Origin: a virus
Reading direction: 5' to 3' (one strand)
IMG/VR virus record: IMGVR_UViG_3300037760_000114
Location: 1-64,000 of that record
DNA length: 64,000 bases
Shown: positions 3,287-42,921 of the stretch, piece after piece
Position numbering within the stretch: position 1 is the stretch's first letter
Layout: each line of letters starts with the position of its first letter
Notes under the pieces: generated by a model
The model's database searches: none
The model's input: only the letters and a program-made list of their open reading frames with translations
What the model was told of the DNA's origin: nothing
Made by a program: the position numbers and the translations under genes

Positions 3287-4755
3287 GGCGGGCACTGGGG
3301 TGGCTCGGTTTGCCGACCCGGCCGGGCAAGCCACGTACGGCACAGCCTGCGCGGGCGGGCGGGCGGCTGCGCAGGGCTGGCCGCTGGCTTGCGGTGCGGG
3401 GGTTGGCGTCTGCGGCGTTCCGGCCTGGCCGGTGGGGTGTGGGGGTGGCGGTGGTGATGCTCGCGGCGCCTGGCCCGTGGTGGCTCGCATCGATAGGCGT
3501 GATGCCAAAGGTGATCTCGGGATTGTTGATCTTGGCTAGTCGCCAGAGACTCAACAATTTGATCCTATCCGACGTGTCAAGTCGGGTGCATTCACTCCGG
3601 CTCCGGCAGCGGCTTCTACGTGACTGGACCGGCGTCATGGGCCAGCTTGGACTCAGCCGCGAAACCCGCGACGGGCACAAGCAGGTACTCGGGCACGGGC
3701 CGATCCGACTCACCGACCACGGCATCACCACCACCGTCGACCTCTCCCCCCTCGGGCTGACCATCCGGAAACACCTCCGACCCCAGCGGGAGGCGATGGA
3801 GTCCAGTTTCAGGGTCCAGCAGGTGCAGATCACCCGGCGCGCGGTCCCGGGGTTGGCGCAGGTCGACATGCGGCACACAGACCCGCTGGAGAAGCCGGTC
3901 GCTGTCGACCGATTGCCGGCGGCCCACTCCCGCACCGGCGTGGTGACATCTGTCGATGAATCGGGCCGGGGGGTGGAGCTGGACACTGCGCTGTCGCATC
4001 TAGTCATCGGCGCGCCGGGGGCCGGTAAGTCGACTGTCGCCTGGGCGCTGCTGTGGGTGTTGAAGTGGGCCGGTGTGCCCGTACGGGTACGTATGTTCGA
4101 CCCCAAGAAGCAGGAGTTCGCCGCGCTCCGCGATGCCGCCTACGCCTACGAGTCCAGCTTGGCCCGCTGGCCGGCCATGCTCGGCCACGCCGTGTCCGCG
4201 TTGCAGGCCCGCCAGGGCGTACTGGCCAAGCGGGGCTGGCAGAAGTTGACCGGCTACAGCGACGAGAACCCGCTCGACCTGCTGATCGTCGACGAGCTGC
4301 TGGCGGTCACGAAGGTCCGCAGCGCGGAGGTGACGGTAGGGCGGGTCACGATGCGGGCCGACGACGCCCTGGAGTTGCTGGCGTCGCAGGGCCGCGCGGC
4401 CGGGTTCACCGTGCTCGGCCTGGCGCAGCTGGCGCAGAAGGATGTCCTCGGCCAGGTGCGGGACCTGTTCGGCTACGCGACATGTCTGCGGGTTCCGCCG
4501 CAGGCACACGAGATGGTCAACGTGGTCCTGGGCGACGGGGCAGCGGAGCACTACCCGGCGCACGAGATCCAGGCTGGGCCACGTACGGCCGGCATGGGCT
4601 ACACCCGCACCGAGTCAGGGCTGATCGTGCGCACCCGCGGCGCGGTGCTTACGGCCCAGCAGCAGCAGCAGGTAGTGGCGCAGATCGCGGCGGACACGGC
4701 CCGGTGGGCAGCGGTCAAGCAGGAGCGGCGGGAGAGGGCGGGGGCGGCGGCATGA
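3283..4755 (+). CDS. FtsK/SpoIIIE-family ATPase (TraB-like DNA translocase)
   Basis: Walker A GAPGAGKS, FDPKKQE, Walker B LLIVDE, GRAAG motif; N-terminal hydrophobic segment. Confidence 0.88.
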   Translation: MRRALGWLGLPTRPGKPRTAQPARAGGRLRRAGRWLAVRGLASAAFRPGRWGVGVAVVMLAAPGPWWLASIGVMPKVISGLLILASRQRLNNLILSDVSSRVHSLRLRQRLLRDWTGVMGQLGLSRETRDGHKQVLGHGPIRLTDHGITTTVDLSPLGLTIRKHLRPQREAMESSFRVQQVQITRRAVPGLAQVDMRHTDPLEKPVAVDRLPAAHSRTGVVTSVDESGRGVELDTALSHLVIGAPGAGKSTVAWALLWVLKWAGVPVRVRMFDPKKQEFAALRDAAYAYESSLARWPAMLGHAVSALQARQGVLAKRGWQKLTGYSDENPLDLLIVDELLAVTKVRSAEVTVGRVTMRADDALELLASQGRAAGFTVLGLAQLAQKDVLGQVRDLFGYATCLRVPPQAHEMVNVVLGDGAAEHYPAHEIQAGPRTAGMGYTRTESGLIVRTRGAVLTAQQQQQVVAQIAADTARWAAVKQERRERAGAAA

Positions 4756-5594
4756 GCGAGTCGGCAGAGCAGGTCGAGGATGTGCGGCCACGGGTGCCAG
4801 CACTAGCGGGGGTGGGCGACGTGGATCTTGCCCCGCTGGGTGCGCTTACGCGGGCCGAGGTGAAGGAGCTGGTGCTGGACGACACCGGTCGAGTTGAGCT
4901 GGCTGGGGAATGCTGGGTCGGCACCGGTTCGCGTCACGTCACTGCGTGGGTCGTGTTCACCCGGCATCGGCTTACGTGCCCTGCCGGTGTGGAGCCGAGG
5001 CTTTGCGGGTGCGGGATCCAGCCCGACCAGTTCCACGCCTACCTCGCCGAACCTGACACGGACGGCGCCATGCCGGTACGGCCGGACGAGCCGCTTCCCC
5101 CACGACAGTGCGTGGACTGCCCGCCGAAAAGGGCTAAGCCCATCTCGAAGCGGGGACGATGTGTGACGCACTACCGCCAGTGGAACAAGCGGCGGTCCAC
5201 GAGGCAGTACGAGCGCGCCGTCACGAAGTACGGAATCACCATCGATGACTATCACCGAATCCACGAGGCGCAGGGTGGCCGGTGCGCGATCTGCCGTATC
5301 GCCACCGGTGCCGCGCGGCGGCTATCGGTCGACCATGATCACGGGTCGGGTGAGGTTCGAGGCTTGCTCTGCCAGCCGTGCAACTACTACCTGGCCCGGA
5401 TCAAGAATGATCCTGAGGCTTTCGCCCGCGGACTGGTGTATCTGATCGACCCACCGGCGCGTGCTGTCCTGCCTCCGAACCCGGAGGTAGACGGGCCGCC
5501 GCTGTCGGATGAGGAACGCGGCCGGGCTGCGGCTCGGGTTGCCGAGCAGATTGGGCGCCAGGCTCGGGGCAACGGTCCGGGGGCGAGCGCATGA
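4752..5594 (+). CDS. Endonuclease VII (His-Me finger) domain protein
   Basis: KYGITIDDY...QGGRCAIC...LSVDHDH...VRGLLCQPCN. Confidence 0.9.
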   Translation: MSESAEQVEDVRPRVPALAGVGDVDLAPLGALTRAEVKELVLDDTGRVELAGECWVGTGSRHVTAWVVFTRHRLTCPAGVEPRLCGCGIQPDQFHAYLAEPDTDGAMPVRPDEPLPPRQCVDCPPKRAKPISKRGRCVTHYRQWNKRRSTRQYERAVTKYGITIDDYHRIHEAQGGRCAICRIATGAARRLSVDHDHGSGEVRGLLCQPCNYYLARIKNDPEAFARGLVYLIDPPARAVLPPNPEVDGPPLSDEERGRAAARVAEQIGRQARGNGPGASA

Positions 5595-6040
5595 GTCGGC
5601 AGCGGATCGTCGGCACCGAGCAGCAGGTGCGGCACACCCTGACTGTGCTGGCCCGAGCCGGCCGGGTGCGGTGGATGTCCCCACCCCGGCAGACCGGCGG
5701 GGGGCGGCTGGTGGTGGAGGTGCTGCTCGCGGACCCGACCCGGGTGTTGACCGCGGCGCCGCCGCGTGCCCGGTGGCCGGAGTGGCTGCCCCGGGTCGAC
5801 GGGGCCTGGACCGGCGTGGCGCTGGTGGGGCTCGCCGTGGTGGCCGGAGTGGGGTGGCTGCTGTGGCAGGCCGTCACCTCCACCGCCCGATGGGCCACCG
5901 ACAACGCCGGGGGGCTGATCCTGCTCGGCTGCGCTGCCGCGTTCGCCGGGTTGTGGTGGGTGACCCGCCGCTTCCGGCGTACGGGCTGCGCGGGGGTGGC
6001 GCACTGCAACGGATGCACACACCACAGAGAGAGGGGGTGA
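5591..6040 (+). CDS. Membrane protein (2 TM), spread-protein-like
   Basis: ATGA overlap; two hydrophobic helices; C-terminal CxGxxHCxGC. Confidence 0.65.
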   Translation: MSRQRIVGTEQQVRHTLTVLARAGRVRWMSPPRQTGGGRLVVEVLLADPTRVLTAAPPRARWPEWLPRVDGAWTGVALVGLAVVAGVGWLLWQAVTSTARWATDNAGGLILLGCAAAFAGLWWVTRRFRRTGCAGVAHCNGCTHHRERG

Positions 6041-6210
6041 TGGCATTGAAGCTCATGAGGTTCTTAGCTGTGTGGGCGCTGTGTTCGGTCGGCATCTACG
6101 CCACGATTTCGGCGCGGGTCGGGATCAAGCCAGAGGACACGCTGGTGATGGCCGTCGGGTCGGCCGCGTTCGCGTTGCTGCCGTCGATCGGCATCGCAAG
6201 CAAGCTCTAG
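6040..6210 (+). CDS. Small membrane protein
   Basis: Starts at the upstream stop; two hydrophobic segments MALKLMRFLAVWAL... Confidence 0.5.
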   Translation: MALKLMRFLAVWALCSVGIYATISARVGIKPEDTLVMAVGSAAFALLPSIGIASKL

Positions 6211-6372
6211 CGGAAGGTTGTAGCGGGTGGATTGTGGCTGGCTGGTGTTGATGATGTGGGGCCTGTCCGTCGGCGGCACGGCGGTGATGGTGGCGGTGGC
6301 GGCGTTCGCGTGGGCGGTGCTGCGGCGCCAGCACCGGGACCGCACCCAGGCACCGGACGACGGGGGGCAGCG

Positions 6373-6540
6373 GTGAAGACGCTGGCCGGCCTGACCCTGG
6401 CCGGGGTGGCGGTGGTGGTCGTGCTGGCGGCCAAGGGCAGCGTGTGGGCGCAGGGGATGCTACCCAGCAGCATCATCGCGGCGATCGTGGCCGTGGGGCT
6501 GATCGCGTTCGTGCGCGCTGTGGAGAAGCGCAGCCGGTGA
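6373..6540 (+). CDS. Small membrane protein
   Basis: VKTLAGLTLAGVAVVVVLAA...IIAAIVAVGLIAFV. Confidence 0.5.
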   Translation: MKTLAGLTLAGVAVVVVLAAKGSVWAQGMLPSSIIAAIVAVGLIAFVRAVEKRSR

Positions 6541-6731
6541 ACTTCACCCCGGTCCGCCCTCGTACGGCTCGCAGGACCCGGCTGCGGGTGTGGGCCGGGG
6601 TGCTGCTGTGGCTTGCCGGCACCATCGGATGTGCGGTGTGGTGGGGGTGGTCCACCGTGTGGTGGCACGGGCTTGTGGTGGCCCCCGCCTACGGGACGCT
6701 GCTCGCCGCTGCGCTGGTGCGCCGGAGTTAG
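6537..6731 (+). CDS. Small membrane protein
   Basis: GTGA overlap; Trp-rich hydrophobic segments. Confidence 0.5.
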   Translation: MNFTPVRPRTARRTRLRVWAGVLLWLAGTIGCAVWWGWSTVWWHGLVVAPAYGTLLAAALVRRS

Positions 6732-6732
6732 G

Positions 6733-6775
6733 TGCAACCCATGACTTGACAACGCAAGCCATGGGTTGCATAATA
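6733..6775 (+). promoter_or_regulatory. Housekeeping-sigma promoter embedded in an inverted-repeat operator; probably leaderless
   Basis: TTGACA (6746-6751), 17 bp, CATAAT (6769-6774), ATG at 6781; 11-bp perfect IR TGCAACCCATG/CATGGGTTGCA (6733-6743/6760-6770). Confidence 0.85.
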
Positions 6776-6780
6776 GAGGC

Positions 6781-7224
6781 ATGACACAGACCATCACCCG
6801 GGTCGGCAGCGCCAGCGTCGCGGCAGCGATCGCCGAGTACCACCACGGCACGGCTGACTGGCTGCCGGGCGGCGTCGACCACCTCGCCACCGGCTCGCAG
6901 CGGACCGTCTACGTCGACTACGACGCCGAGATCGTCTACAAGCTGGGCATCGACGGCGCCAACCGGCAAGAGGTCTCGACCCTCTCGGCGCTACGCGCAA
7001 GCGGTGTCGGTCACGCACCGGCCGCCGACCTGCACGAAGTGACCGTCGCAGACCTGGACGGCGACACCATCACCGCCACGGTGGTTGCGATGCCGTACCT
7101 GCCTGACGACGGCAGCGTCACTGGCCCGTACCCGATCCTGGACGGTGCCGCTGACCTCAACCCGGCCGGCAACGTGGTCGCTAACGGTGGCCAGCTGTGG
7201 CTGATCGACGCGGGTGGCCTGTGA
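6781..7224 (+). CDS. Minimal protein-kinase-like fold protein (147 aa)
   Basis: G-loop-like LATGSQRTVY, IVYK lysine, helix-C-like E (NRQE), catalytic-loop-like DLNPAGNV, DFG-like LWLIDAG. Confidence 0.65.
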   Translation: MTQTITRVGSASVAAAIAEYHHGTADWLPGGVDHLATGSQRTVYVDYDAEIVYKLGIDGANRQEVSTLSALRASGVGHAPAADLHEVTVADLDGDTITATVVAMPYLPDDGSVTGPYPILDGAADLNPAGNVVANGGQLWLIDAGGL

Positions 7225-8087
7225 GCACGCCCCCGCATCTCGACCCGGCAGTACGCCACGACGTGGTGATCATGTTCGACGCCACCGACTGCAACCCCAA
7301 CGGCGACCCGGACCAGAACAACCAGCCCCGCACCGATGACGAGTCCGGCCACGGGCTGGTCACCGATGTGGCGATCAAGCGGAAGGTCCGCGACACGGTG
7401 GCGCTGCTGCACGGCGACGACCGCCGGTACGGCATCTTCGTGGAGGCCGGGCACGCGCTGAACACCCGTTGGGCCGACGCTCGCGAGAACACCCCCGGTG
7501 CCGCCGACCCGCTGGCCACGCTGTGTGGCATGTACTGGGACGTGCGGATGTTCGGGCAGGTCCTGACCGGCGGCAAGGGTGGACAGTCCTCCTCGGTCCG
7601 GGGTCCGGTACAGCTCACCTTCGGCCGCAGCATCGACCCAGTGCTGCCCACCGACCACACCATCACCCGGGTCACCCAGACCCGGCAGGAAGACATCGAC
7701 AAGGGCGAGAGCACCGAGATCGGCTCGAAGTGGACCGTGCCGTACGGGCTGTACCGCACCCACCTGTACTACTCGCCGGGGCGTGCCGCCAAGACCGGGA
7801 TCACCAGCGACGACCTCGACACGCTGTGGCGGGCGATCGCGGCCATGTTCGAGCACGACCGGTCCAGCAACCGTGGCGGAATGGACATCGCCGGACTGTG
7901 GGTGTTCAGCCACCCGGACGCGCTCGGCGTGGCGCCGTCACGGGCGGTCCTGCGCCGCATCCAGGTCACGGCCGCCGATCCGGGCCGGGCGCCACGCGGC
8001 TACGCCGACTACCGCCGGCAGATCGACCGCGCCGGCATGCCCGCCGGCATCGAGCTGGCCACCATCGTCGACATCTGGGAGGACTGA
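7221..8087 (+). CDS. cas7: Solitary type I-C CRISPR backbone protein Cas7/Csd2 (288 aa)
   Basis: NPNGDP...NQPR...GLVTDVAIKRKVRD, WDVRMFGQV, VRGPVQLTF..SIDP, ITR, KWTVPYGLY, AAKTGIT..DL, MFEHDRS, H...LG: end-to-end Csd2 signature. Confidence 0.95.
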   Translation: MSTPPHLDPAVRHDVVIMFDATDCNPNGDPDQNNQPRTDDESGHGLVTDVAIKRKVRDTVALLHGDDRRYGIFVEAGHALNTRWADARENTPGAADPLATLCGMYWDVRMFGQVLTGGKGGQSSSVRGPVQLTFGRSIDPVLPTDHTITRVTQTRQEDIDKGESTEIGSKWTVPYGLYRTHLYYSPGRAAKTGITSDDLDTLWRAIAAMFEHDRSSNRGGMDIAGLWVFSHPDALGVAPSRAVLRRIQVTAADPGRAPRGYADYRRQIDRAGMPAGIELATIVDIWED

Positions 8088-8092
8088 GAACC

Positions 8093-8371
8093 GTGAGCAC
8101 CATCGGATACGAGATCGAGCGGCACGAGGTGGAGGCGCTGCGGGACAACCTGCTGGGCGATCTACTCGCCGAGCAGGATGACCTGATCGCCTACCAGCGG
8201 CTGACCCGGGAGCAGGCGCTGTGCGACGCGCTCGTGTCGGAGATCAAACGGCTACGCGGCGAGCGGCTGCGGCGGCTGGCTGAGGGGCGGACCGCCGAGC
8301 AGGTGGCCGACCTGACGGGGCTGGGGACGCGGCAGCGGGTGCAGCAACTGATGGCCGTCGGGCTATCCTGA
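8093..8371 (+). CDS. Small HTH protein (Aca-like regulator candidate)
   Basis: GGAGG RBS; C-terminal GRTAEQVADLTGLGTRQRVQQLM helix-turn-helix. Confidence 0.75.
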   Translation: MSTIGYEIERHEVEALRDNLLGDLLAEQDDLIAYQRLTREQALCDALVSEIKRLRGERLRRLAEGRTAEQVADLTGLGTRQRVQQLMAVGLS

Positions 8372-8441
8372 CCGGTATCGGCGGACGGCCGGGGTAGTGG
8401 CCCGGCTGTTCCGCCGCCCAGCCACTACCTGGGAGCATCCG

Positions 8442-9701
8442 ATGCACAGCGACTTCGGTGCCCGCCTACGGGCGCTACGGCTCGACCGGGGACTGTCCCT
8501 GCGCGGCCTCGCCGAACTGGTGCACTACTCACACACTCACATCTATGACCTTGAACGTGGCAGTAAGCCCGCGTCACCCGCGCTGGCCGGCCGGTTGGAC
8601 GCGGCGCTAGACGCAGGCGGTCAACTCGCCGCAGCCCTGACCCCTGCCTCGGGGTGCCACCCGTGGCAACCCGGCCGGGCCCATTTCGGGTCGGTCGACG
8701 CCGCTGATCTGGCTCGCACGCTGACGCAGGTGCCCGGCGAGGCTGATCCACTGCGGCTTGCCCACGAGTGGATGGTCACCGAGCCGCCGCAGCTGCACCA
8801 CCTGCGTGCGGGCCGCCGGATCGGCGAAGAGACGGTGGCTGCGGTTGAGCAGCGGGTGCACCAGCTGCGGCTGATGGACGATCACATGGGAGGGCAGGAG
8901 TCCTACCGCCTCGTCGCTGACGAGCTGGCCGCTACCGGGACGTTGCTGCGGGAGGCGTCGTGTCCGCAGCCGCTGGCGCGGCGGCTACTGGCGGCGGTGG
9001 GGGAACTGGCGCAGCTGGCGGGGTGGGTCGCGTCCGACGCCGGTATGCACGATCGGGCCGAACACCACTACCTGACCGGGGCGTGGGCGGCGTCAGCGGC
9101 CGGTGCGGTGGCGGTCGCGGCCAACAACCTGTCCTGCCTGGCCTACCAGATGGCCGGCCAAGGCCGCCGGGCCGAGGCTGTGGTGTTGGCCCGCACAGCC
9201 GCCGCCCGCGCCGAACGCGAGACATCCCCTGCGGTACGGGCGCTGTTGGGCGAGCGGGTCGCGTGGACGCACGCCCGCGTTGGGGAGCCTGAGGCATGCG
9301 GGCGGGCGCTGGACCGGGTGGACGACATCTACGAGCCCGGCGACGATCCGCCGTGGCTGTACTGGCTCGACCGAGGCGAGATCGAGGTCATGGCGGGCCG
9401 CTGCTGGACTGAACTCGCCCGACCGCTGAGGGCGGTCCCGACCCTCCAGGCTGCGATCGCCAGCTACCCGGCCGACCGGGAACGGGAGACCGCGCTGTAC
9501 CTGTCGTGGCTGGCGGAGTCCCTGATCCAGGCCCATGAGGTGGAGGAAGCGGCGGCGACCGCGCTGCGGGTGGCCGAGCTGGCGACCCGTGCGGGTTCGG
9601 TGCGTGCCAACCAGCGTGTGCGGCTGCTGTCGGACCGGCTGGAGCCCTGGAGTAGTCACCCGGTAGTGGGCGAGTTCCGCCATGCCGCTGGTGTCAGCTA
9701 A
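8442..9701 (+). CDS. XRE-family HTH regulator with C-terminal helical/TPR-like domain (actinomycete type)
   Basis: FGARLRALRLDRGLSLRGLAELVHYSHTHIYDLERG; LRLMDDHMGG and QLAGWVASDAG motifs. Confidence 0.85.
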   Translation: MHSDFGARLRALRLDRGLSLRGLAELVHYSHTHIYDLERGSKPASPALAGRLDAALDAGGQLAAALTPASGCHPWQPGRAHFGSVDAADLARTLTQVPGEADPLRLAHEWMVTEPPQLHHLRAGRRIGEETVAAVEQRVHQLRLMDDHMGGQESYRLVADELAATGTLLREASCPQPLARRLLAAVGELAQLAGWVASDAGMHDRAEHHYLTGAWAASAAGAVAVAANNLSCLAYQMAGQGRRAEAVVLARTAAARAERETSPAVRALLGERVAWTHARVGEPEACGRALDRVDDIYEPGDDPPWLYWLDRGEIEVMAGRCWTELARPLRAVPTLQAAIASYPADRERETALYLSWLAESLIQAHEVEEAAATALRVAELATRAGSVRANQRVRLLSDRLEPWSSHPVVGEFRHAAGVS

Positions 9702-12902: not shown

Positions 12903-13006
12903 GTTGCGGCCGGTCCGCCGGCCGCCCTTCATTAAGGGGTGGACTGGCTGAAGGTCCGTCGCCCTGGCACCTTTGTCGCGGGCCACCGCCCGCCCTTCAC
13001 TGAGAC
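12903..13006 (+). CRISPR. CRISPR mini-array: repeat - 36-nt spacer - degenerate repeat
   Basis: R1 12903-12938 GTTGCGGCCGGTCCGCCGGCCGCCCTTCATTAAGGG (8-bp stem); spacer 12939-12974; R2 12975-13006 GTCGCGGGCCACCGCCCGCCCTTCACTGAGAC (6-bp stem); shared GTYGCGG...CCGCCCTTCAYTRAG. Confidence 0.75.
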
Positions 13007-13101
13007 GCCCCCGGCCCACAGTCGGGGGCGTTCTGCTGACCCCGGACACGACGAAGCGCCCCGCGCCCACCCCGTAACAGGGGGAAGGACGCGGGGCGCT
13101 C
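13005..13101. terminator. Two hairpins closing the mini-array transcript and the convergent late operon
   Basis: ACGCCCCCG..CGGGGGCGT (13005-13031) and AGCGCCCCGCG...CGCGGGGCGCT (~13055-13100). Confidence 0.6.
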
Positions 13102-41274: not shown

Positions 41275-42921
41275 CTATCTGCGCATCACGACGAGTTTCT
41301 GCACGACTTCCGGCTTGGGCCACAGGTCGGCGGCGGTCACATCGCTGGCAGCCTCGTGCACGATCACCGACGCGACACAGGCGTCGATCTTCTGCGCCCG
41401 GCTCGGCTTTGCCAGCACATACCGCTTCACCGGCCCCGGGCGGGCAGAGCGGCGGGCGTGCCGCATATGCCTAGCGGTCACCGCACAGCCGTCATGCCAC
41501 AGGCCCGTATTCTGCTTCAGCACGTCGATGTGTAGACGTTCGCAGGCGGCGTGCATCTGGATCAGCCGGTAGGTTTCCCACCGCAAAACCCGCTTCTCGC
41601 CGTGCTCTGCCGCCCAGTCGTCGATCTCCGACTTCCAGTCCGGCGGGTCGACATACATCCGGGCCACCCGGTACCGGCGGAACAACTCGGCCACCGCCGC
41701 CCGGACCTCCAGCCGCGGCACCTGACCGTCGAAATCGACCGGGTTCCAGATCGTCGGCTGCCCATCCTCCAGCACCGGAGTAAACTGGAACCCGTCCTCG
41801 GTTTCGGCCCGGATCACCGTCCAGTCGTCGGTGTCCGACCCGTCCATGCCGAGGCAGATCGCCGCACCGTCGGGAACCGGCAGCGGCACCGCCAGGTCAT
41901 CCCACCGGTCCCCGTCCATGTAGGCACCGGAGCCGTACACCAACCGGTTGGCGAAAAACCGCTCCGCCTCCGCCGGGTCCCGCTCGGCGATGTCCGCCGA
42001 CTCCGCCTCGATCGAGTCCAGGTCGACATGGCCACCGTTTTCCCGCAGCACCTCGCCGTAGACAATCCGGTGGATCTGCCGCCGCTCCCGCTTGTTCTGG
42101 TAGCTCAGATGCTTCGGCGGCTGGTCGAACTGGCGGTAGATGTCCTTGGCGTTCGACTCGAACTCGCGCTGCGCGAGGCTGCTCTCCGACGGGTCGAACG
42201 CGTTCGTCGTCAGCGACGACCTGCCGCCCATGCCGGCCAGGCCACGGTACTGGGTACCGGCGACCTTGGTCATCTTGTTGGTGTCGTTCCACAGCCCGAC
42301 CTCGTCCTGCGGCACGAACGTGACCCGCTGCCCGAGCCTCGACTTCGCCGACATCGTGACCACGTCGATGCGGCCGCCGCCCGGCAGACGGATAAACTCC
42401 TCGCCCGTCTTCGGGATCAACTCCGCCAGCGGACCCAGCTCGATCATCGGACGCAACGCGTCGTAGACGTTCTGCGTGTTCTCTTCGGACAGGGCCGTGA
42501 TCTGGATAAGCGGCGTCGCCCACGGCATGCCCATCGGCTCACCGGGCTCGTACTCGTACGTCCAGCCGCAACCGCAGCCGTACACGCGGCAGTCGTAGAC
42601 CTCGCCACCGTCGGCCCAGCCAGCGAACAGGGCCGGCCCGACACCCTCCAGGCACACCTGCGCAGCGACTAGGGGACTCTTCCCTTTTTTCTGGGCGTCG
42701 ATCAGCAGACCACGCCGGTGCACGAACGCCGGCCCCAGCTGCGGGTTGGACGGCACCCACTCCGCCGTCGGCCTGACCAGGTAGAAGTTCGCCAGGTACC
42801 GCAGCTGGTACTCGTAGAGCCGGAACGGGTCGCCGCGGGCGAACCTGTCCGGGACTACACAGTGCGCCTCGATCCAGTCGAGGGCGAGCGCCAGCGTCCG
42901 CGGCTCACGACGCCGCTCCAC
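41275..42921 (-). CDS. Terminase large subunit
   Basis: QKKGKSP Walker A, QDE, CLGMDGS..DDWT, QKIDACVAS. Confidence 0.93.
   Translation of the reverse strand: MERRREPRTLALALDWIEAHCVVPDRFARGDPFRLYEYQLRYLANFYLVRPTAEWVPSNPQLGPAFVHRRGLLIDAQKKGKSPLVAAQVCLEGVGPALFAGWADGGEVYDCRVYGCGCGWTYEYEPGEPMGMPWATPLIQITALSEENTQNVYDALRPMIELGPLAELIPKTGEEFIRLPGGGRIDVVTMSAKSRLGQRVTFVPQDEVGLWNDTNKMTKVAGTQYRGLAGMGGRSSLTTNAFDPSESSLAQREFESNAKDIYRQFDQPPKHLSYQNKRERRQIHRIVYGEVLRENGGHVDLDSIEAESADIAERDPAEAERFFANRLVYGSGAYMDGDRWDDLAVPLPVPDGAAICLGMDGSDTDDWTVIRAETEDGFQFTPVLEDGQPTIWNPVDFDGQVPRLEVRAAVAELFRRYRVARMYVDPPDWKSEIDDWAAEHGEKRVLRWETYRLIQMHAACERLHIDVLKQNTGLWHDGCAVTARHMRHARRSARPGPVKRYVLAKPSRAQKIDACVASVIVHEAASDVTAADLWPKPEVVQKLVVMRR

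Follow-up and report, generated by a model that had tools for sequence, protein, structure and literature searches.

The 64,000-nucleotide stretch analysed here (the window) is the first part of the virus record IMGVR_UViG_3300037760_000114, which is complete at 104,084 bp with a 127-bp terminal repeat and encodes a terminase, portal, protease, major head protein, tape measure, tail protein, endolysin, and tyrosine integrase. The element is a real tailed phage, a temperate actinophage, and its sequence has a G+C content of approximately 70%. As the first-pass annotation of the window had claimed, positions 6733–8371 hold three coupled genes, all on the plus strand: open reading frame (ORF) 1 (6781–7224), which encodes a 147-aa minimal protein-kinase-like protein; the gene of a solitary, full-length type I-C Cas7/Csd2 of 288 aa (7221–8087); and ORF3 (8093–8371), which encodes a 92-aa four-helix protein with a C-terminal helix–turn–helix (HTH)-like helix pair. 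The GTG start codon of cas7 overlaps the stop codon of ORF1 as GTGA, an arrangement of translational coupling, and ORF3 starts 5 nt past the cas7 stop codon.

Judged by its sequence, the product of the middle gene is unambiguously a full-length type I-C Cas7/Csd2, as originally called. It matches PF05107 (E = 2e-79) and TIGR02589 (Csd2), the latter over model positions 1–283 of 284 and with a score of 241 bits, where the cut-off is 182. The PADLOC matches were to Cas7 models only, those of Cas7c and Cas7b, and the solved type I-C Cas7 chains 8G9S_B (E = 1e-65) and 7KHA_B (E = 2e-55) align to residues 12–271 and 10–279, respectively. In the complete 104,084-bp genome, hidden Markov models (HMMs) of Cas5d, Csd1, and the Cas3 core gave no match, and a tblastn search with the full Streptomyces type I-C protein set found only Cas7, the other matches being noise (E > 0.2). 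No CRISPR-DR family of Rfam and no array-like repeats were found in the genome, and neither the 37-nt type I-C repeat of Micromonosporaceae, drawn from 18 host arrays, nor a solitary repeat unit has a copy in the phage or its relatives. An apparent match of GGATTGAAAG at 91.9 kb was rejected because it falls within a tRNA cluster (at least 26 genes, minus strand, 91.2–95.2 kb, outside the window; Rfam RF00005). A 188-aa gene at 85.6 kb has a match to Cas6 only (E = 0.028), and Cas7 is still counted as solitary. The components of a complete type I-C locus (cas5c, cas8c, and cas3, with or without cas4, cas1, and cas2, together with an array) were not found in the element, and none of them was found within 10 kb in the relatives described below. 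Cas7 is truly solitary on the complete phage, and the statement made for 64 kb, that other type I-C cas genes and an array are missing, extends to 104 kb. The gene thus qualifies as an orphan viral cas gene, since neither an array nor a cas operon accompanies this cas homologue on the virus.

The trio recurs in at least five loci besides this phage, all of them prophages or plasmids of Micromonosporaceae: a 203-kb circular Micromonospora zamorensis 'plasmid' (L002; NZ_CP107937.1), two IMG/VR Salinispora prophage contigs (L004 and L005), a Verrucosispora chromosome (L007), and a Plantactinospora contig (L008). Across these loci, the kinase and Cas7 are 63–66% and ORF3 is 39–57% identical to those of this phage. 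The order of the genes is shuffled, being either kinase–(x)–HTH–Cas7 or kinase–Cas7–(x)–HTH, and outside the trio the neighbourhoods are unrelated. The x ORFs that intervene in L002, L007, and L008 likewise show no relationship to one another and have no significant Pfam match. Besides the cassette, the M. zamorensis replicon carries mostly hypothetical genes and a tyrosine integrase that shares 38% identity with that of this phage; a phage-plasmid is one possible identity of the replicon, an unrecognised prophage-like element another. On the minus strand of L008 (3309–3545), a short second Cas7-like fragment, with 67% identity over 27 residues, lies approximately 7 kb from the intact solitary Cas7.

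Both the kinase and the HTH gene adjoin every solitary Cas7 of known context, the count for the kinase covering six loci examined and two more that were inferred, and wherever kinase and HTH co-occur, Cas7 is present. The linkage is not symmetrical, because the kinase also occurs with neither Cas7 nor ORF3 nearby (L006, L009, L014, and L016) and ORF3 homologues occur with neither Cas7 nor the kinase (L050–L053), behind other small cargo genes. The suggested co-occurrence of the three genes was thus recovered in five further loci, whereas the kinase and the HTH protein proved not to be specific to Cas7.

The cassette is preceded by a sigma-70/HrdB-type promoter on the plus strand (6746–6774), in which TTGACA (6746–6751) and CATAAT (6769–6774) are separated by a 17-nt spacer. 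With 11 of 12 matches, the promoter is near-consensus as first described; one such match was found in 5 kb against 0.2 expected, and it is the sole site with one mismatch or fewer across the entire 104-kb genome. The start codon of ORF1 follows the −10 hexamer at a distance of 6 nt, so that the mRNA is probably leaderless. An inverted repeat on the same strand (6733–6770) encloses the −35 hexamer. It had been reported as an 11-bp repeat; the repeat itself was recovered, but its arms (6733–6748 and 6755–6770) are 16 nt long, 94% complementary, and separated by a 6-nt gap. This putative operator may also be viewed as two near-palindromic GCAAsCCATGrsTTG sites in tandem, and its motif occurs once in the 104-kb genome. 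In all six Cas7 cassettes, a palindrome covers the −35 hexamer and the spacer of a −35/−10 pair, and exactly 6 nt separate the −10 hexamer from the start codon. The same design of promoter, palindrome, and HTH gene is also kept in L050, L052, and L053, where Cas7 and the kinase are missing.

The AlphaFold2 model of ORF3 (predicted local distance difference test [pLDDT] score 89) contains helices at residues 10–25, 30–63, 68–75, and 80–89, the last two short ones forming the HTH-like pair. Structural neighbours in the Atlas include HTH_23 and Sigma70_r4 clusters (0.88–0.90). The earlier description of ORF3 as a 92-aa HTH protein is supported by the helix pair of the model, while its support from sequence is weak, consisting of a match to phrog_686 'HTH DNA binding protein' with E = 1.4e-4. 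The operators fall into two types. This phage (G000), L008, L050, and L053 share the type CAAsCC-ATG/TAG-GsTTG, and the ORF3 proteins of these loci are 53–69% identical to that of this phage; L002, L004, L005, and L007 share the palindrome type CCCCTCCCCTTG-n-CAAGGGGAGGGG, and their ORF3 proteins are 68–79% identical to one another and approximately 40% identical to that of this phage. The palindrome type thus tracks the ORF3 subfamily in the two subfamilies compared. Of the evidence for binding of the repeat by ORF3 and for repression of its own operon, in the manner of anti-CRISPR-associated (Aca) proteins, this covariation is the strongest. DNA binding by ORF3 is predicted, and ORF3 is quite probably the autoregulator of the operon. 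On the basis of layout and operator, we propose that ORF3 is a new Aca-like repressor.

The resemblance of the cassette to anti-CRISPR (acr)–aca operons, asserted at the outset, is upheld by a palindrome that overlaps a strong promoter and differs between HTH subfamilies, by a small HTH gene within the operon, and by an HTH family whose upstream cargo changes and includes the known anti-CRISPR (Acr) family AcrIII-1/DUF1874. DUF1874 is the AcrIII-1 anti-CRISPR family (bioRxiv 10.1101/778746), although the role of AcrIII-1 in native systems has been questioned by a later preprint (10.1101/2023.01.10.523387). No known acr gene occurs in the cassette of this phage, and the link to an AcrIII-1-family gene is an indirect one, through the ORF3 homologue of L051. 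In this metagenome contig (Ga0299914_10001691, positions 5600–7381), a promoter with a perfect CATGTGGCTAGCCACATG palindrome stands at the head of a row of two unknown genes, the DUF1874/AcrIII-1-family gene (6531–6857; STIV-B116-like, E = 4.5e-27), a small ParB-like gene (approximately 6870–7110), and the gene of an ORF3-family HTH protein (7112–7381). The row looks like a candidate multi-gene anti-defence operon.

ORF1 had been described as having a kinase fold, and the AlphaFold2 model (pLDDT 85) together with the fold searches agrees with this, though with middling scores: the top rows from Foldseek (probability 0.95–1.0) and VIA (Z 6.5–7.0) were all kinases, with 115 residues or fewer aligned. 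The matches comprised TkArkI, OspG, NleH1, HopBF1, SRPK1, APH, MLKL, and BMPR2. Structure matches in the Atlas were Kdo/WaaP, APH, and Pkinase clusters together with many small viral proteins, with template modelling scores of 0.66–0.72 for clusters of the Kdo family and of the 'protein kinase domain' and of 0.59 for RIO1. Across 23 homologues, G38 of the Gly-loop, K54, E64, D125, and D143 do not vary, and conservation of N127 and N131 is at least 90%; these residues were assigned to the Gly-loop, the VAIK-type Lys, the alpha-C Glu, the catalytic Asp and Asn, and the DFG Asp by pattern rather than from a nucleotide-bound structure. The protein ends right after a DFG-like IDAGG motif, four residues past the DFG-like Asp. 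Family searches against Pfam, NCBIfam, PHROG, and PADLOC returned no match for ORF1, including none to HipA or to any curated kinase HMM. Like OspG/NleH, HopBF1, Bud32/RIO, Kdo/WaaP, and the phage T7 gp0.7-type kinases, ORF1 combines an N-lobe, a catalytic loop, and a DFG-like motif with little or no C-lobe, and it shares the conserved Lys, Glu, Asp, Asn, and Asp positions with them. In contrast to these minimal kinases, it is shorter than all of them, has no Pfam match, and reaches Z scores of only 6.5–7.0. The model thus lends moderate support to the view that ORF1 is a minimal kinase, and it may be active as a kinase. With 147 aa, ORF1 ranks among the shortest kinase-like proteins that have a complete catalytic signature. 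Its substrate is probably a host protein; a role in the function of Cas7 is possible but not needed.

The kinase family comprises approximately 49 clusters in 5.8 billion proteins, all from Micromonosporaceae or their phages. The kinase tree is poorly resolved, and copies linked to Cas7 are not cleanly separated in it from those without Cas7. Although often next to Cas7, the kinase is separable from it and no obligate partner; it is also a common early gene of these phages.

In a tree of the 120 best database matches and the copies from the loci, the solitary Cas7 proteins form one clade with a Shimodaira–Hasegawa-like approximate likelihood ratio test (SH-aLRT) support of 97, on longer branches and apart from 110 canonical actinobacterial Cas7c proteins. 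The clade consists of eight known solitary copies and four of unknown context (P0064, P0068, P0096, and P0137). It had been suggested that solitary phage copies might group together, and they do. Cas7 identity among the six loci compared is 61–80%, the reading frame is intact in all six, and the phage Cas7 is approximately 65% identical to host Cas7c. Pairwise ratios of nonsynonymous to synonymous substitution (dN/dS) by the Nei–Gojobori method (NG86) were 0.20–0.44 for the solitary copies, and the medians for canonical pairs at like divergence were 0.28–0.44; such values are crude at this divergence and with the bias in G+C content at third codon positions, and they serve only as a comparison with the host genes. 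The dN/dS of the solitary copies resembles that of host Cas7c, indicating that selection is not relaxed; relaxed selection was one of the outcomes that the first-pass annotation had named as refuting its reading.

At 139 alignment columns, conservation among the canonical copies is at least 95%; the solitary clade retains 105 of these, and the losses cluster at residues 97–124 and 211–224. The dipeptide GQ directly before VRGP, which is common to the Cas7c of Neisseria, Desulfovibrio, and Micromonosporaceae, is gone in nearly all solitary copies, and in one solitary subclade HDRS..RG..M is replaced by AANLS..GG..R. The loss of deeply conserved motifs fits an altered or defective Cas7 subunit. 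We propose that Cas7c was captured once from a Micromonosporaceae-type I-C system and has been maintained on its own from then on.

The host Cascade that such a protein would meet is present in the family, as had been presupposed. Cas7c was detected in 30 of 301 Micromonosporaceae genomes, lying between Cas8c and Cas4/Cas1 in 28 and being of the solitary type in 2, and none of the 30 combines a canonical with a solitary copy. Canonical type I-C loci in 28 of the 301 genomes show that the presumed target system exists in the host family. Compared with the canonical locus of Micromonosporaceae (cas3-cas5c-cas8c-cas7c-cas4-cas1-cas2 with 37-nt-repeat arrays), the phage Cas7 belongs to the same family at the identity given above, whereas it has neither partner genes nor a repeat, falls into a separate, longer-branched clade, and has lost the GQ-VRGP signature.

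Two spacers in host type I-C arrays were also observed. One (L057:714–749, genome G121) agrees in 29 of 36 positions with window positions 42277–42312, which lie in the large-terminase gene of this phage, a weak hint that Micromonosporaceae type I-C systems target this phage lineage. The other (L061:888–926, genome G016) partially matches, in 23 of 25 positions, the conserved VTDVAIKR codons of cas7c as they occur in other genomes and in solitary copies but not in the cas7 of the host itself, and it may derive from a foreign, perhaps mobile-element-borne, cas7c.

Considering these results together, we interpret the cassette as a self-repressed early anti-defence operon in which Cas7 is a candidate Cas-derived anti-CRISPR against host type I-C systems, a reading to which we give roughly even chances. 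The cassette would be a mobile operon of temperate Micromonosporaceae phages, whose strong promoter would be fired by host RNA polymerase to yield a leaderless transcript. A dimer of ORF3 would then bind the palindromic sites over the −35 hexamer and spacer and shut the operon down, as Aca proteins do. The phage Cas7 might enter the seven-subunit Cas7 backbone of the host type I-C Cascade as a faulty subunit, or it might tie up CRISPR RNA (crRNA) or partner subunits; by either route, the host Cascade would no longer recognise phage DNA or license its cleavage. Because Cas7 is present in seven copies per complex, one bad copy may be enough, and the protein could thus be a potent poison. The kinase shares the promoter and would probably act on a host protein. 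The decoy role that was suggested for Cas7 from the start is supported in part, by its solitariness, its clade, the selection acting on it, the acr–aca-like layout, and the existence of type I-C systems in the host family; the kinase and the HTH protein are not specific to it.

The nearest precedents are those of Katz et al. (bioRxiv 10.1101/2023.06.24.545427), who demonstrated that AcrIB3, a Cas5 homologue, and AcrIB4, which corresponds to the C-terminus of Cas8b, assemble into a defective Cascade. As in these cases, and as in the orphan cas genes of the same study, a virus carries a lone homologue of a Cascade subunit with neither an array nor a cas operon, and an HTH gene accompanies it in a small accessory operon. 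The validated cases differ in that they concern single-copy Cas5, the C-terminal domain of Cas8b, or Cas3, in type I-B systems of Listeria; here the protein is the multi-copy backbone subunit Cas7 of type I-C in Actinomycetota, with approximately 65% rather than 38% identity, and it is a candidate only. Neither the kinase neighbour nor the covariation of operator and HTH protein is described there. The 358 orphan viral cas genes from IMG/VR in Table S3 of that paper include the orphan cas7 entries IMGVR_UViG_2519103185_000002 (L005) and IMGVR_UViG_2563366533_000005 (L004), and a row for IMGVR_UViG_3300037760_000114 with cas7 at 7254–7838. These coordinates equal residues 12–206 of the present Cas7 exactly, so the row is probably this contig. 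In the literature, no paper was found that describes a kinase–Cas7–HTH unit. The novelty asserted by the first-pass annotation is overstated, as orphan viral cas genes have been published as anti-CRISPRs, with the Salinispora relatives of this gene in Table S3.

Several points weigh against an anti-CRISPR role. Over-expressed bona fide Cas5 or Cas8b gave no inhibition (Katz et al., bioRxiv 10.1101/2023.06.24.545427), indicating that homology alone is insufficient, and no paper was found on a validated Cas7-derived Acr. The Cas7 of this phage is full length and keeps most conserved residues, with HDRS..RG..M intact, so it may do the normal job of Cas7 for some other purpose. In the lysogens Verrucosispora sp. 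TAA-831 and Plantactinospora sp. CA-290183, neither a second Cas7c nor any Cas5c, Cas8c, or Cas1 was found, whereas the last three were all detected in a control genome; in these two hosts, Cas7 has nothing to poison or re-tool. The regulator also departs from known acr–aca operons. In a Foldseek search of the PDB with its model, ORF3 returned nothing below E = 4, a profile search of PDB sequences gave no solved chain below E = 0.17, and no HTH family of Pfam matched below E = 0.05 or near its cut-off; moreover, the HTH gene precedes cas7 in most relatives. Finally, the recurrent kinase neighbour is unaccounted for by a Cas7-derived Acr and is left unexplained.

The empty lysogens leave an anti-CRISPR role in other hosts possible, and they are the chief point in favour of a CRISPR-independent function. 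Cas7 might have been exapted as an RNA-binding or filament module of a prophage system for superinfection exclusion, abortive infection, or regulation, which we regard as unlikely but as the main rival reading. The minimal kinase could then be the effector or sensor partner and the HTH protein would keep the module silent until needed, an arrangement that we consider unlikely to the same degree. OspG-type minimal kinases require a partner protein for activity, and OspG is among the fold matches of ORF1. A rare kinase that stands beside every solitary Cas7 of known context, lysogens with no CRISPR-Cas to inhibit, and a full-length Cas7 under purifying selection would all suit such a module. However, some loci have the kinase but no Cas7, others have the HTH gene but neither of these two, the kinase tree gives no clean split between Cas7-linked and Cas7-free copies, and PADLOC recognised nothing but Cas7; in addition, the link of the HTH family to an AcrIII-1-family gene points to counter-defence rather than defence. 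A more specific proposal is that kinase and Cas7 form one machine, either with Cas7 or Cas7–RNA filaments switching on the kinase or with the kinase phosphorylating Cascade subunits recruited by the decoy; we consider this doubtful. If true, it would be a previously undescribed enzymatic, Cas7-targeted off-switch (or sensor) for type I-C complexes.

The same two lysogens, positive control included, also weaken the alternative raised in the first-pass annotation, that Cas7 re-tools the host Cascade, by joining it to supply Cas7 or to exploit host crRNAs for the phage. Its full length, its similarity to host Cas7c, and the conserved positions it has kept would permit this, but Cas5c, Cas8c, and Cas1 are missing from both lysogens, the phage and its relatives have no type I-C-type repeat unit, and canonical and solitary copies were not found together in any of the 30 Cas7c-positive genomes, leaving it only a slim chance. 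A kinase and an HTH protein under a palindromic operator make up the layout of HipBA, and the cassette is mobile, so one might see a toxin–antitoxin system in which the kinase is the toxin, the HTH protein the antitoxin and autorepressor, and Cas7 a passenger. The strict pairing of kinase and HTH protein and the HipA-type domain that mark HipBA were not found: the kinase has no ORF3 homologue nearby in four loci (L006, L009, L014, and L016), ORF3 has no kinase in L050–L053, and the kinase matches neither HipA nor any other Pfam family. Cas7, moreover, is conserved and always there when kinase and HTH co-occur, and we consider a HipBA-like system very improbable. Phages do at times carry complete CRISPR-Cas systems, of which Cas7 could be a decaying, functionless leftover, and the second Cas7-like fragment in L008 might be taken as a trace of decay. 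Yet the intact frame in six loci, the dN/dS values as low as those of host genes, the age of the clade implied by 61–80% identity, and the translational coupling of Cas7 under a strong, regulated promoter make a leftover hardly credible.

If the anti-CRISPR reading is true, the phage Cas7 would be the first anti-CRISPR derived from a backbone subunit, and the co-option of cas genes as a route of Acr evolution would extend to Actinomycetota and to a seven-copy subunit, whose poisoned form should work at low dose. The idea itself has already been published, and close relatives of the gene are already tabulated in print. Type I-C systems are used as compact genome-editing tools, and a protein off-switch that enters the complex would then be practically useful. 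The ORF3 family and its palindromic operator offer a new guilt-by-association handle for anti-defence cargo in high-GC actinophages.

Some minor features of the record and of the surroundings of the cassette may be added. The direct terminal repeat (1–127 and 103958–104084) is exactly 127 bp, a length typical of assembler k-mer overlap; the record may thus be a circular or circularly permuted assembly, and its true physical ends are doubtful. Upstream of the cassette, window positions 3439–4755 encode an FtsK/SpoIIIE-like ATPase, and a gene ending at 5594 encodes a recombination endonuclease VII (PF02945, E = 1.4e-23). Five very small overlapping ORFs follow (5591–6731), some of them hydrophobic, the last ending 2 nt short of the operator. 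Further downstream, at 12903–13032 and after a gene stop, there are two GC hairpins, each with a CCTTCA-type tail; they are unlike the 37-nt type I-C repeat of the host family, the 11-nt handle being absent. Between the cassette and the next gene lie GC-rich hairpins (8379–8433; minimum free energy −39.6 kcal/mol, z = −2.2). This next gene (8442–9701) encodes an XRE-HTH fused to an NsdA-like tetratricopeptide repeat domain (NF053720, E = 2.5e-74), its HTH is also matched by the PADLOC model capH, and it may be a second regulator of the region.

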